DNA of 64,000 nt from NCBI GenBank assembly GCA_027620075.1, contig JAQCEY010000007.1, positions 43,764 to 107,763 of the forward strand. The letters are read 5' to 3'. Both the position numbers and the translations under genes were made by a program. This DNA is from Pseudomonadota bacterium. GTDB taxonomy: Bacteria > Pseudomonadota > Alphaproteobacteria > Rickettsiales > UBA6187. This document shows positions 20,318-29,200 of the stretch, in pieces (within the stretch, counting starts at the first letter, position 1; the number at the start of each line of letters is the position of its first letter). Under the pieces are notes generated by a model. That model was not told where the DNA came from. It saw only the letters and a list, made by a program, of their open reading frames with translations, and ran no database searches.

Positions 20318-22252
20318 ATGTCAAAAGAATCAAAAGATCAAATTATTAGGCCATCTAGCACATCGCTTTTTCGTGAAGATAACGGTATTCCTCACAAACT
20401 ATACGATGGCTTATTAGAAGATAATCCGGGCATGAGGATAGAACCCCTTGATAAGCATGGTAACTTCAAACTAGTGGATAAAGTTAACGAAGGAAAATTT
20501 ATAACCTTTGCATCAAAAGAGCAAAATGGTTCACATAATACCGAGAAATACCGTATTAATGTCGAGCAATTTGATGGAGAACTCCAATTAAGAGATTTTG
20601 CTAGTGCAAGCCCTAAAGGATGTTTAATTCCGATGAAAATAACGGTGCAAAAAGGAGAATTAGATTTAGAGGCAAGCTATCGAGATAACACTACGGGTCG
20701 TAGCCCGCCTGTTAGTATAGTTGATAAAAATGATAGGTTTGGTATGGCCATGGGCTTTTTAGCACCTTATACACACCATACTGAATGCAGCATGGAACGT
20801 GGTCATAAAGCTACAACAATGGCAGAAGAAAGTAAGGGAATGGAGCCGACAGGCGAAGCAAAAATGCAGCCCACAGCAAGTATGGGAAAGATGTTTGCTT
20901 CCGCAATGCTTATGAAATCATTCGAGAAGCTAGAAGACAGGCTGGATACAAGATTAGAGGCTATAGGTAGTCATGCAAAACAGGAATTTCTGGCCGCAAA
21001 TGACGCCACCACCTTAATGGATGTACCAATTGCAAAAACAATAGGTTTTTTGGAAGATAGGGGTATGGGGGCTGAGGCCGGAAGATTGCAAAAGGTTAAT
21101 GACTTTATTGGCCAAATGCAGCCTAGTGATGAACTAAAAGATGTTGAGCATAAAGGGGCCATTGAGCGAAGAAATAATATAACTCCAAGAAGTCTGGTTA
21201 ATCAAACAGCAAATCTTTCTGAATCGATGGCATGGAAAAATAAAGACGGAGTTGCTTTTTATGATGAATGGAATAAAGACGAAGCTACTGAATTTTCTAC
21301 TGAAACTATATTAGCACATACTCCGGGAAATCTTTCTCAAAATATCATAGATTTTAATGGCGTTGAGCAAGTACCATACCGCAATGGTAATCTAGTAGTG
21401 GCTGGAGAAGTTGCTAAAGCTATATGGGAAGGTGACTCTCCTTCACTTCAGGAAATACTAACAGAAGTTGCTCCTGGCGCTCATATTATTACAAAAAGAA
21501 GTGATTTGCAGGGGCTTGATTATGCAGAATCTAAATATACCAATGGTAAAAAAGACTTTAATACAGGAATTCCGACTGATGCAGGTGGAGCGGCAGGAAA
21601 TTACATAGCCTCACCAGAAGTTGTTGCTCAATTTTCTCAAGATTATATAGGGGCAGGTTTATCGGATAGCACTCTCTTTCAAAGAGCTGAATATCAGAAT
21701 CTTATGACTAATGTAATCAGTGATGCGGCAAAACATCCTTCGGTTGACCAAACCCCATATGAGTTGGGCTTAATGTGTATTGCTTTAGATAAAAGTGATC
21801 CACGCAGAGAAGACGGTTATACGCATATGGTTGGCCATGATGGTGATACGCCTAATATTTACACTGATGCATTTACACTTGTTGGCATAGATGAAGATGA
21901 CAGAATAAGTAAAGTTGGAGCTACAAAAGTAAATATGTCGGTACGTGACTCTCGATCTTTTGAAGATTTTAATCAGAAAGTGATGGAGCAAAAACAAGTT
22001 AAGCAGCTTGATGCCCTTGATTTGGCCACCATGGCTCCAGTATCAGGCGAGGTTGAGAGTATAGCAGCTAGCTTAGGTGCTGAAATGTCTATGAAACCAC
22101 CTTTAGGGTTAAATGAAGAATCTATGGAAGAATTAAATGAGATTAAAGGCGGACTTCAAAAGCTTATGGAAAAGAATCCTAAAGAAAAAACTCATACCCA
22201 GAAAATGGCCGATATGAATTTGAAATCACCAGGTGGTGCTAGGGAAATTTAA
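20318..22252 (+). CDS. tail-array protein P1: unknown ~560-aa head plus shared C-terminal tail
   Basis: No domain recognised in the head. Last 82 aa are QLDALDLATMA...ESMEELNEIKGG...SPGGAREI, homologous to the tails of P2-P5. Confidence 0.7.
   Translation: MSKESKDQIIRPSSTSLFREDNGIPHKLYDGLLEDNPGMRIEPLDKHGNFKLVDKVNEGKFITFASKEQNGSHNTEKYRINVEQFDGELQLRDFASASPKGCLIPMKITVQKGELDLEASYRDNTTGRSPPVSIVDKNDRFGMAMGFLAPYTHHTECSMERGHKATTMAEESKGMEPTGEAKMQPTASMGKMFASAMLMKSFEKLEDRLDTRLEAIGSHAKQEFLAANDATTLMDVPIAKTIGFLEDRGMGAEAGRLQKVNDFIGQMQPSDELKDVEHKGAIERRNNITPRSLVNQTANLSESMAWKNKDGVAFYDEWNKDEATEFSTETILAHTPGNLSQNIIDFNGVEQVPYRNGNLVVAGEVAKAIWEGDSPSLQEILTEVAPGAHIITKRSDLQGLDYAESKYTNGKKDFNTGIPTDAGGAAGNYIASPEVVAQFSQDYIGAGLSDSTLFQRAEYQNLMTNVISDAAKHPSVDQTPYELGLMCIALDKSDPRREDGYTHMVGHDGDTPNIYTDAFTLVGIDEDDRISKVGATKVNMSVRDSRSFEDFNQKVMEQKQVKQLDALDLATMAPVSGEVESIAASLGAEMSMKPPLGLNEESMEELNEIKGGLQKLMEKNPKEKTHTQKMADMNLKSPGGAREI
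22004..22252 (+). repeat. shared C-terminal tail module, copy 1 (sub-modules A+B)
   Basis: Encodes QLDALDLATMAPVSGEVESIAASLGAEMSMKPPL + ESMEELNEIKGGLQKLMEKNPKEKTHTQKMADMNLKSPGGAREI. Confidence 0.85.
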
Positions 22253-22273
22253 TGCCTAGAGTAGGAGATCTGT

Positions 22274-27393: not shown

Positions 27394-27406
27394 TAAGGTA
27401 ATATTT

Positions 27407-29200
27407 ATGAACGAGCATAAGAGTGGTTCAGAAAAGCCAATAAAAATAGGAATTATAACGCCTTCAAGTAATTGGGCATGCGATGTTGAAATGAAGGGTG
27501 AAAAGTATAATGGAGCAAAGTCGGATTATACAAGAAAGGTTGCATCAGCAACATTACAATCACGCGGCTATGAGGTGGTAGGTTTAGAAAAGTACCCTAT
27601 GGTTCCACCAACACAAAGTGAAAAATTAGGTTTTGTTCCCCAGTCACCATATTCAGCCGCAGCAGAATTTATAAGAATGGTTCATGAGGATAAACCTGAT
27701 GTGATGTGGGCGATGGATGGTGGAGCGTATGCTACAAACGTAGCACAGCTTTTAGATGAATATGCAAGTAATCCAACAACGTTCCTTAAGCAACATGCCG
27801 TTGACCCATTAACGGGCCTTCAGCTAAATTATGGTGCAGGTGCAGAAAAAGGACTTGAAGATGCAAAAAAGCCATTGATTGTAGGTTATAGTGATATAGG
27901 AAATATTCAAATATCGATGAAAAAACACGGATTTCCTTCAATGTACGCACCAACGGTTGGATTGGGCCATCCACTTGATCCTGGTTATCCAGAACCTGAT
28001 CACAAAAAATTTGCAGAAAGAATGAGAGTATGCACCAGTGGCATAAGTAGCAATAAATTGATGGATGAAAGTCATGGTTTTAAAGGGATTGATTCAACAT
28101 GGGGAGCAATGCTTGAGCCTACATTTGAACAAATAAATAGATTTGTTAGAGAAAAAAGCTCTGGATTTCAAATAGAATCGAAACATGTAGCTGATTCAGG
28201 GCATTCATTAGGTGGCGAAATCTGGGCTGGCTCTACATCTATTATTGCAAATAGTTTAGGAACAAGTTGGGAAATTGATTTTCCTAGTGACACTATACTC
28301 ATGCCAGAACTTATGGGACAAGTGGACTCAAAATTTATTGATAATATTGATCTATTAGCAGATACAGGAAAACTTAGTAACGTCAAAGCAATTGTTTTTG
28401 GTGTGGTACCAGGAGAAGAGCGCAATAAAAAAATTGCTCAGATTAAACAAAAAGCTCAAGAATATGATATCCCCTTCTTTATTCTTCCTGAAGAACATAC
28501 TTTCGGTCACTTTGATCGAGATAAGTATGATCAATTTGTTCCCTTACTCAATGGCCAGCGAGCTAGCATTACTAGAACTTCCGAAGGAATTCAATTGGAT
28601 TTAGGAGATAGAATAATTGGAGGGTTAGAGGACACTATTCCTTCTCAAAAAAGAATGCGAAATAAAAGTGGTATTACGCCTATTTCTGAGAACTCTTCAT
28701 CTATTGAATATAGTTTGAAAGATTTATGGAAACTAAAAGCAAGCAGTTCAGTTGACTTTTCTGGACAAGATTTGGTTGTTAACCTGGATGAACAAAGTTG
28801 CTCTATGGGAAGTCCAGAAATATATCTTCAGGGCATTCAAAGCGCAGGTGTTTTTGATAACACCAATTCAATAAAATTTGTTGTATCTGATAAAGATCCT
28901 CAATATTTGAATTGCCTAGATTATTTTACTGAACAACTTAAAACATCCGGCAGAAATATTGGTGATATTTCTGTAATAGACTTAAATAAAATCCAACAAC
29001 TTGATGCCCTTGATTTGGCCACCATGGCTGATTTATCTCCTGAGGTTTTGAGGGAGGCAAAAGCATTGGGTGCAGAGATTACTGCAAAGCCACCATTACA
29101 TAGAGAAAGTAAAGATCTAGAAGAAAAAAGTAGTTGGGTTGATAAAAGCGCGAGGACTAACAAAAACAACCTAACTCCCGGTGGTTCCCGGGATATATAG
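27407..29200 (+). CDS. tail-array protein P5: S66 LD-carboxypeptidase-like head plus extension plus shared tail
   Basis: PIKIGIITPSS, nucleophile-type GYSDIGN, later FGH. ATG at 27407 is preferred to the track start 27377. Tail ends TPGGSRDI. Confidence 0.7.
   Translation: MNEHKSGSEKPIKIGIITPSSNWACDVEMKGEKYNGAKSDYTRKVASATLQSRGYEVVGLEKYPMVPPTQSEKLGFVPQSPYSAAAEFIRMVHEDKPDVMWAMDGGAYATNVAQLLDEYASNPTTFLKQHAVDPLTGLQLNYGAGAEKGLEDAKKPLIVGYSDIGNIQISMKKHGFPSMYAPTVGLGHPLDPGYPEPDHKKFAERMRVCTSGISSNKLMDESHGFKGIDSTWGAMLEPTFEQINRFVREKSSGFQIESKHVADSGHSLGGEIWAGSTSIIANSLGTSWEIDFPSDTILMPELMGQVDSKFIDNIDLLADTGKLSNVKAIVFGVVPGEERNKKIAQIKQKAQEYDIPFFILPEEHTFGHFDRDKYDQFVPLLNGQRASITRTSEGIQLDLGDRIIGGLEDTIPSQKRMRNKSGITPISENSSSIEYSLKDLWKLKASSSVDFSGQDLVVNLDEQSCSMGSPEIYLQGIQSAGVFDNTNSIKFVVSDKDPQYLNCLDYFTEQLKTSGRNIGDISVIDLNKIQQLDALDLATMADLSPEVLREAKALGAEITAKPPLHRESKDLEEKSSWVDKSARTNKNNLTPGGSRDI
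28997..29200 (+). repeat. shared tail module, copy 5 (A+C)
   Basis: QLDALDLATMADLSPEVLREAKALGAEITAKPPLHRESKDLEEKSSWVDKSARTNKNNLTPGGSRDI. Only a few substitutions relative to copy 4. Confidence 0.85.

Follow-up and report, generated by a model that had tools for sequence, protein, structure and literature searches.

What does a shared C-terminal tail do on a set of neighbouring enzymes whose catalytic heads belong to different families? This question is raised by a 64,000-nucleotide stretch of DNA from an uncultured freshwater alphaproteobacterium, on contig JAQCEY010000007.1 (the window, to which all positions refer unless another locus is named), in which five consecutive genes and one N-terminal remnant occupy positions 20318-29200 of the plus strand. 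The five proteins (W1, W2, W3, W5 and W6; Table 1) end in homologous tails of 67-124 amino acids. By sequence comparison, the tail is a new and rare protein module without a Pfam or PDB match, limited to one clade and one type of operon, and its opening block is a candidate LDLA-box that may bind 14-3-3 proteins. Gene starts were set at ATG codons preceded by a GGAG/GAGG-like ribosome-binding site (the mechanical open reading frames (ORFs) of W3 and W6 begin at GTG 23901 and at 27377, respectively), which leaves intergenic distances of 21, 19, 14, -25 (an overlap between the remnant and W5) and 13 nucleotides in gene order. A LysR-family regulator gene is transcribed divergently across a 147-nucleotide AT-rich intergenic region upstream of W1, and from this divergent arrangement LysR is the probable regulator of the array. 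Records of ENA, JGI, Logan and NCBI contain independent assemblies of this locus, indicating that it is not an assembly artefact.

The five tails align with 12 invariant columns, and tails across the whole family span 62-137 amino acids. In a six-frame scan of the window, [QN]LD[AG]LDL and GG[AS]R[ED]I-stop each have five occurrences and no more, all of them in the tails, and a hidden Markov model (HMM) of the tail matched only the five ORFs (E 1e-25 to 1e-44). A sequence-only reading of this DNA had proposed five closely spaced same-strand genes plus a remnant, with homologous tails bounded by these motifs and no signal peptide. Its description was borne out: all five ORFs are present on the plus strand, all ten motif occurrences were found where it had placed them, and no N-terminal hydrophobic stretch, signal peptide or transmembrane segment was seen in 15 family members. 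The HMM that it had called for also retrieved further members from the databases. Alignment of the family resolves the tail into a mosaic of short blocks. M1 ([QN]LDALDL) is followed by M2a (AT[TM]AP[IL]SPE[VL]..A...GA.[IV]S.KPP) or its alternative M2b (E[IV]KPGQL...YG.AASSPTS.DG), by an optional M3 (ESMEELNEIK), by M4a (KEPKEK.HT.KMAD.NL) or its alternative M4b (SSW[IV]D[KR]...N), and by M5 (PGG[AS]R[ED]I-COOH). One head family can bear differing combinations of blocks, and [AS]R[ED][IV]-COOH is retained in 16 of the 18 members known.

No Pfam-A family matched any tail, and PDB sequence searches found no match to the tail profile and nothing useful with a 33-residue tail fragment, in line with the earlier remark that the tail is not recognisable as a BID domain or an XVIPCD. 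An AlphaFold2 model of the tail alone has a confidence (pLDDT) of 62 and shows three separate helices that do not pack into a tertiary structure; by this prediction the tail is non-globular and largely unfolded. The 15 family members just mentioned are all acidic (pI about 5), with a net charge of just +1 to +3 over their last 20 residues. Other candidate roles of the tail motifs were tried and rejected. Double-glycine or ubiquitin-like processing at PGG is contradicted by variable glycines (PSGS, PNQS, PDGS, PRGS and PGSS) and by a neighbourhood without genes for E1, E2 or a C39 peptidase; C-terminal motifs of the PDZ, PTS1 or KDEL type fail through a register mismatch; and the beta-clamp motif QLxLxL is one residue out, its Q often being N.

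Is the tail maintained by selection? Between W5 and W6, synonymous divergence (dS) is 0.99 and non-synonymous divergence (dN) 0.05, giving an omega (dN/dS) of 0.05 and 94% amino-acid identity despite unrelated heads. The remaining tail pairs have omega values of 0.10-0.26, and the orthologous pair W2/L011a shows about equal constraint on tail and kinase head (0.161 and 0.164). At the DNA level the tail copies are 66-85% identical, direct repeats of 191-207 nucleotides coincide with the tails, and similarity stops at the stop codon. Such omega values at a nearly saturated dS rule out a passive repeat. Comparison among related loci revealed that heads and tails part company: L006 and L094 are 84% identical in their heads and 56% in their tails, the corresponding values being 21% and 93% for L013 and L094, and 24% and 88% for L011b and L011d. 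Tail similarity thus tracks the genome, not the head. Cumulatively, these codon and identity comparisons show that the tails are under purifying selection and have been exchanged between heads.

The heads themselves could be assigned largely by profile searches. W2 matched Pfam APH (E=2.3e-5), with HHDAHPLN and IDMED readable in its translation; W3 and W5 matched PF00144 (E=1.8e-23 and E=3.5e-14), the closest solved structure to W3 being the alkaline D-peptidase 4y7p (E=2.8e-6); and W6 matched Peptidase_S66C (E=2.3e-8) and Peptidase_S66 (E=6e-7). The W1 head has no Pfam match of its own. It aligns by BLASTP with the PF00144-positive paralogue L011b (E=5e-8) over a region spanning the SxxK motif (ASMGK/ASVGK) and the YxN motif (YRNGN/YSNGG), its motifs SMGK, YRN and HDG are present, and its homologues P0009 (47% identity; a precomputed match) and P0011 (33%) have PF00144 matches. 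Judged from these alignments, the W1 head is a divergent PF00144 serine hydrolase and not a new fold; with it, the array has three heads of the beta-lactamase fold, alongside an APH-like kinase and an S66 peptidase. The sequence-only reading had named the kinase, two SxxK beta-lactamase/DD-peptidase folds and an S66 LD-carboxypeptidase-like fold correctly; its "unrecognised" first head of about 560 residues has to be given up. Catalytic motifs are readable in the translations of all five heads, and all heads score far under the curated cut-offs of every named resistance enzyme. The W1, W2 and W6 heads had no useful match among PDB sequences, and an AlphaFold2 model of W2 built on a three-sequence alignment was unusable (pLDDT 39). 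The remnant aligns locally with the W5 N-terminus (score 122) and retains the SxxK motif as STTK; it has no Pfam match. L013 likewise has a short N-terminal PF00144 remnant (9596-9928), with an intact tailed PF00144 gene following it directly. Remnants at two loci suggest repeated tandem duplication and decay in these arrays.

How widely is the tail distributed? When 1.84 billion representative proteins were scanned exhaustively with HMMER, 10 hits were obtained, with the tail at the extreme C-terminus in every one. Half of these stand for the window's own genes, L011a being the cluster representative for W2. Contig look-up and rescanning brought the family to 18 members from a few related metagenomic bacteria. 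L011/L012 contains five consecutive tailed genes (one APH-like, three PF00144 and one S9/DLH hydrolase), L010 two (S66-like and APH) and L013 one (PF00144); W1-type heads are found in L006-L009, L094 and L095, a head with a weak match to TraB/PrgY/GumN (erythromycin-esterase superfamily) in L005, and a W2-type kinase in P0013. The last is a lone kinase among core chromosomal genes (atp operon, purD, sodB) on a 414-kb contig (JGI 3300050046). It retains LNALDLEVKPGQL and the YGKA..PTSKDG block, and ends in ...NKGRS in place of REI. Neighbours that recur at the related loci are a convergent GNAT, APH(6), EamA, APH, an AadA-like nucleotidyltransferase and an ABC exporter. A protein in L095 (2553-4697; GCA_040384045.1) has an S9 hydrolase head fused directly to a TraB/erythromycin-esterase-like head, 714 residues in all; its tail starts normally (VINLADLTKE), then diverges and lacks the GGSREI end, which represents either a fusion with tail decay or a frameshift. 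Other searches added little. The tail profile had no hit in a word-indexed search of 5.8 billion proteins, the index being too insensitive for this query; a scan of GTDB genomes with the pattern [QN]LD[AG]LDL[AE][TIV][MK] found no relative, the pattern being too strict; and a scan with six tails gave only one further short JGI contig, L094.

What the opening block might do is suggested by the C-termini of the Pseudomonas toxins ExoS and ExoT, which were read from PDB chains 6gn0_E and 6gnn_C, respectively. ExoT ends in EGLLDALDLATGTDRSG... (in another excerpt, EGLLDALDLATGTDRSGKPQEQDLRLRMRGLDLA) and ExoS in QGLLDALDLASKPEPSGEV... (in another excerpt, QGLLDALDLASKPEPSGEVQEQDVRLRMRGLDLA); the W1 tail stretch for comparison is QLDALDLATMAPVSGEV, and VKQLDALDLATMAPVSGEV is an example of a tail peptide. 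The LDALDLAT of W1 is identical to ExoT at 8 of 8 positions, ExoS having LDALDLAS. Over LDALDLA[ST]xxxxSGEV, W1 and ExoS agree at 11 of 16 positions, or 12 of 16 when S/T counts as a match. LDALDLAT is found in W1, W5, W6 and seven relatives, with LDLE, LDID and PDLA variants elsewhere. The LDL core is the best-conserved element of the tail (15 of 18 members), even in the distant P0013 without the REI end. The LDLA-box is an amphipathic element of the form L-x-x-L-D-L-A with an LDLA core. Crystal structures place it, independently of phosphorylation, in the amphipathic groove of 14-3-3, a protein found only in eukaryotes, and the toxicity of ExoS in yeast requires the C-terminal segment with the LDLA-box (PMC6141617). 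Binding is mostly hydrophobic, with Leu428 the most critical residue (PMC9523730); the equivalent position is Leu in 16 of the 18 members and Ile in one, the block being missing in the other. The LDLE variant of W2, W3, L011a and P0013 equals the core (WLDLE) of R18, the other classic unphosphorylated 14-3-3 ligand (PMC9523730). The block opens a tail that is predicted to be non-globular and has itself a pLDDT of about 53, as expected of an exposed flexible segment after the catalytic domain.

Could the match be fortuitous? The probability of LDALDLAT is about 4e-10 per position, and a relaxed form of the motif was found only in tails among 750,000 residues of six-frame ORF segments from 96 loci. 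In JGI metagenomes, [QNA]LDALDLAT occurs in 109 stretches, one of them a relative, which is about the level expected by chance from a composition estimate, indicating that the pattern is not a generic bacterial motif. A chance origin of the match is therefore unlikely on these frequencies. In the literature searched, LDLA-boxes are reported in ExoS, ExoT, AexT and VopT only.

We next compared the tailed proteins with systems that they resemble. Like ExoS and ExoT, they carry LDALDLA[ST] in a flexible C-terminal extension past the catalytic domain of a bacterial protein. By contrast, their heads are serine hydrolases and kinases and not ADP-ribosyltransferases, their conserved extremity is C-terminal whereas the toxins use an N-terminal type III signal, the position of Leu422 is polar, and the second, C-terminal LDLA-box occurs only in the toxins. 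The ExoS/ExoT/AexT/VopT family is marked by an ADP-ribosyltransferase domain with a hydrophobic 14-3-3 patch and by that second box, neither of which was found here; with only the motif in common, the tailed proteins are not members of this toxin family. The synthetic, phage-display-derived R18/difopein shares just four residues, LDLE, with the variant tails. A functional precedent is the Legionella Dot/Icm effector Lem8, a protease that depends on host 14-3-3 through phosphorylation-independent binding (PMC8871388). It is a type IV-translocated hydrolase requiring host 14-3-3, as the favoured reading set out below would have it, but Lem8 apparently binds via an N-terminal coiled coil, has no DALDL-like element and shows no sequence similarity to the tail.

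Bartonella Beps (BID plus basic tail) and Xanthomonas X-Tfes (XVIPCD) also combine clustered variable heads with one conserved C-terminal module, which serves there as a type IV signal. The tail differs in matching neither through Pfam-A and in not being predicted to fold. For the Beps, the tail gave no Pfam-A or PDB match, although the presence of a BID model in the library is unconfirmed, and the extreme end of these acidic proteins is only mildly basic, at +1 to +3 over 20 residues. For the X-Tfes, no tail has a Pfam-A match and no immunity gene is adjacent, the gaps of 13-21 nucleotides leaving no room for one. Type I substrates with an uncleaved C-terminal signal are similar in being acidic, in lacking a Sec signal, in their conserved extreme C-terminus and in having ABC exporters within 5-20 kb; the ABC proteins here are MsbA-like, however, and there is no HlyD-family gene, there are no RTX repeats and the signal composition is atypical. 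Tested in this way by sequence, the tailed proteins do not belong to the ExoS toxin, X-Tfe or type I substrate classes.

Of the readings considered, we favour, tentatively, one in which the tail is an effector module combining docking to host 14-3-3 with a C-terminal export signal. The tail would be a portable, largely unfolded module on LysR-linked hydrolases and kinases without Sec signals; its block [QN]LDALDL[AE] would act as an LDLA-box of the ExoS/ExoT type, lying in the 14-3-3 phosphopeptide groove without phosphorylation; and its conserved, mildly basic end ...PGG[AS]R[ED]I-COOH would be read by an export machine, most plausibly an rvh type IV or a type I system. Once exported, the enzymes would be captured, stabilised or positioned by host 14-3-3 in the cytosol of a eukaryotic cell, probably a protist. 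That 14-3-3 is bound, that the enzymes are exported and by which route, that a host exists and what the enzymes act upon are all points that we infer. The sequence-only reading had offered a translocated substrate and a docking module as separate options; an LDLA-box would fit both at once, with a host protein as the scaffold. The literature describes strong retention of the rvh type IV system in rickettsial genomes, also in basal extracellular lineages, and conservation of a type I system in all Rickettsiales (PMC11077975). A fuller scenario, in which a Rickettsiales-like bacterium injects co-regulated hydrolases and kinases (beta-lactamase-fold, LD-carboxypeptidase-like, S9, erythromycin-esterase-like and APH-like) into a protist and an exchangeable C-terminal tag parks them all on host 14-3-3, is conceivable but doubtful.

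Several observations weigh against this reading. Within the block, the equivalent of ExoS Leu422 is Q, N or A in the family, L006 has Pro at the Leu426 position, one member has LDID, L005 lacks the block, and the second box at the C-terminus of ExoS is absent. Genes for type IV, type I or type VI secretion were found neither in the 64-kb window nor in the roughly 10 kb of flanks reached, which keeps secretion of the proteins at the level of a supposition. The effector-like architecture proposed earlier holds in its variable heads, single C-terminal module, missing Sec signal and tandem genes, and finds no counterpart in a T4SS, T1SS or T6SS locus there. The tail is limited to the operon's own proteins, 5-6 per genome, and cannot be the genome-wide, general effector signal of the organism. 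The affinity to Rickettsiales depends on one protein, Aas, which is 72-87% identical to proteins of freshwater metagenome-assembled genomes (one a closed 2.1-Mb chromosome), and on the submitters' labels of those genomes as Rickettsiales or Alphaproteobacteria. A cheW gene and phage-defence-like genes nearby suggest an at least partly free-living lifestyle. Finally, the heads are of families typical of antibiotic inactivation and lie beside the LysR gene in an island of untailed GNAT, APH, APH(6), LdcA-like, ABC and EamA genes. Resistance-like heads in such a setting would suit a purely bacterial role in detoxification.

If the 14-3-3 match were set aside, the tail could be purely a type IV or type I export signal through which the enzymes reach the medium, the periplasm or competing bacteria; LDALDL would then be read by a bacterial coupling protein or adaptor, and the identity with ExoS/ExoT would be coincidence or convergence of amphipathic helices. 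The invariably C-terminal position of the tail, the acidic proteins with a slightly basic end and no Sec signal, and the conservation of type IV and type I systems described for Rickettsiales are all consistent with this. Beta-lactamase-fold and LD-carboxypeptidase-like enzymes normally act on cell-envelope substrates, and within one genome the tails are more alike than the heads, as if co-evolving with one receptor. We nevertheless consider it rather unlikely. Genes for a membrane-fusion protein (HlyD family), TolC or a type IV system are missing from the window, whose two ABC proteins score best as MsbA-like exporters (383 and 328 bits, versus 193-208 for PrtD). The last 50 residues, free of RTX repeats, consist to 41% of LDAVTSIF and to 23% of KHPMWC, a composition unlike that of type I signals. 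Immunity genes are also lacking between the enzyme genes, and an exact eight-residue match to a host-factor motif would be an improbable accident.

Alternatively, the tail may act inside the bacterium, either by docking to a scaffold, an efflux pump or the membrane, or as a bipartite adaptor-plus-degron tag that switches the enzyme set together. The surrounding island of untailed drug-modifying homologues and exporters, the divergent LysR gene, the same neighbours at related loci (GNAT, EamA, APH(6) and ABC) and the confinement of the tail to the operon's own products all point in this direction, and conserved extreme C-terminal residues are typical of recognition by proteases or adaptors. However, the loci have no conserved gene in common that could encode a partner, 62-137 residues with several blocks constrained at omega 0.05-0.26 far exceed the needs of known C-terminal degrons, and the exact match to a eukaryote-specific ligand motif is left unexplained. 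We regard this role as improbable. Unrelated enzymes with a common flexible C-terminal extension are also the architecture of encapsulin cargo, and the predicted non-globular tail would fit; but no shell-protein gene occurs in the window or at any related locus and Pfam finds nothing in the tail, so that a cargo-loading peptide for an encapsulin, a microcompartment or vesicles is very improbable. That the shared 3' ends are non-functional repeats kept by recent duplication or gene conversion, as their coincidence with direct repeats and their swapping between heads might suggest, is hardly credible; it is contradicted by the partial DNA identity ending at the stop codon and already refuted by the near-identity of W5 and W6 tails at high dS.

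The array lies within an island of about 29 kb (1956-31093), nearly all on one strand, that is rich in small-molecule-modifying and export homologues. Transport is represented by four EamA transporters and the two MsbA-like ABC exporters. The modifying enzymes include three untailed APH-like kinases, an APH(6), at least six GNATs (one of them AAC(6')-like), methyltransferases, a NUDIX protein and a HAD hydrolase. All of these proteins score far under curated cut-offs for named resistance genes. Two small ORFs without family assignment (82-89 and 93-113 residues) lie past the APH(6) gene at each of two tail loci, in the window (31184-31453, minus strand, and 31611-31892, plus strand) and in L011 (9975-10686). 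Next to the island is a mobile or defence-like islet (32280-42655), where G+C content rises to 41-43% from 38% for the window as a whole; besides the genes listed in Table 1 it encodes a 515-residue protein without family assignment. The aas/lplT functions are split into two minus-strand ORFs overlapping by 8 nucleotides, one for the MFS portion (48491-49816) and one for the acyltransferase and AMP-binding portion (46369-48498), whereas NCBIfam PRK06814 describes a single fused protein of 1140 residues. Genes for membrane stress and scaffolding (PspA/IM30, YqiJ and a flotillin-like Band_7 protein) are grouped at 56329-61277. Right past the 3' end of the window, L096 encodes a 1135-residue protein with a rhomboid domain and many Sel1/TPR repeats (11053-14460), followed by an IS21-type element and then cheW (17684-18011); Sel1 repeats are common in host-associated bacteria, and cheW suggests motility. 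Rfam found no RNA family in the window, and a scan of it for promoters and terminators gave results at or under chance.

Table 1. Positions of the tailed genes, their tail motifs (located by motif scan) and other genes in the window
Feature	Position	Strand	Description
LysR-family regulator	19268-20170	-	NCBIfam IlvY-like LysR match of 235.8 bits, slightly under the 246-bit cut-off
W1	20318-22252	+	644 aa; divergent PF00144 (beta-lactamase/DD-peptidase fold) head
W1 tail	22004-22252	+	
W1 LDLA-box	22007-22030	+	LDALDLAT, then MAPV-SGEV; SGEV at the same spacing in ExoS
W1 terminal motif	22232-22249	+	GGAREI-COOH
W2	22274-23920	+	548 aa; APH-like kinase head
W2 tail	23660-23920	+	
W2 LDLA-box variant	23663-23683	+	LDGLDLE; LDLE core as in the 14-3-3 ligand R18
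W2 terminal motif	23900-23917	+	
W3	23940-25637	+	565 aa; PF00144 head
W3 tail	25263-25637	+	124 aa, longest of the array
W3 LDLA-box variant	25266-25286	+	LDALDLE
W3 terminal motif	25617-25634	+	
Remnant	25652-25969	+	105 aa; N-terminal piece of a W5-like PF00144 gene; no tail
W5	25945-27393	+	482 aa; PF00144 head
W5 tail	27190-27393	+	
W5 LDLA-box	27193-27216	+	LDALDLAT
W5 terminal motif	27373-27390	+	
W6	27407-29200	+	597 aa; divergent S66 (LD-carboxypeptidase-like) head, then about 140 aa unassigned
W6 tail	28997-29200	+	
W6 LDLA-box	29000-29023	+	LDALDLAT
W6 terminal motif	29180-29197	+	
LdcA-like S66	8377-9288		untailed; within the island
IS3-type transposase	9825-10655		mid-island
Large serine recombinase	32280-33944		islet
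ParB-N and DNA methyltransferase fusion	34848-36164		islet
TIR-domain protein	37327-38712		islet
AAA ATPase	40270-41811		islet; resembles PtuA or restriction-associated ATPases
PspA/IM30	56907-57608		
YqiJ	57768-58433		
Flotillin-like Band_7 protein	59391-61277		

The likely mechanism varies known themes, namely C-terminal effector modules and the use of an LDLA-box to hijack 14-3-3. Binding of the tail to 14-3-3 would show that a motif for a host cofactor, so far seen in a single family of type III toxins, has been turned into a transferable tag for unrelated enzymes of a distant bacterial lineage, whether through descent or convergence. This would be the first LDLA-box family outside ExoS-type toxins and a natural plug-in for 14-3-3 docking and export, perhaps serving symbiont-supplied detoxification or the clearance of cell-wall fragments inside a eukaryotic cell. 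In eukaryotic cells, it would likewise serve as a small natural tag with which any chosen enzyme could be tethered to 14-3-3. Even without 14-3-3 binding, the tail would still be a new, strongly selected and exchangeable C-terminal module limited to one type of operon. With it, the tail would offer a sequence signature for host-directed proteins of uncultured bacteria and a testable handle on the contact of poorly known freshwater Rickettsiales-like lineages with eukaryotes.

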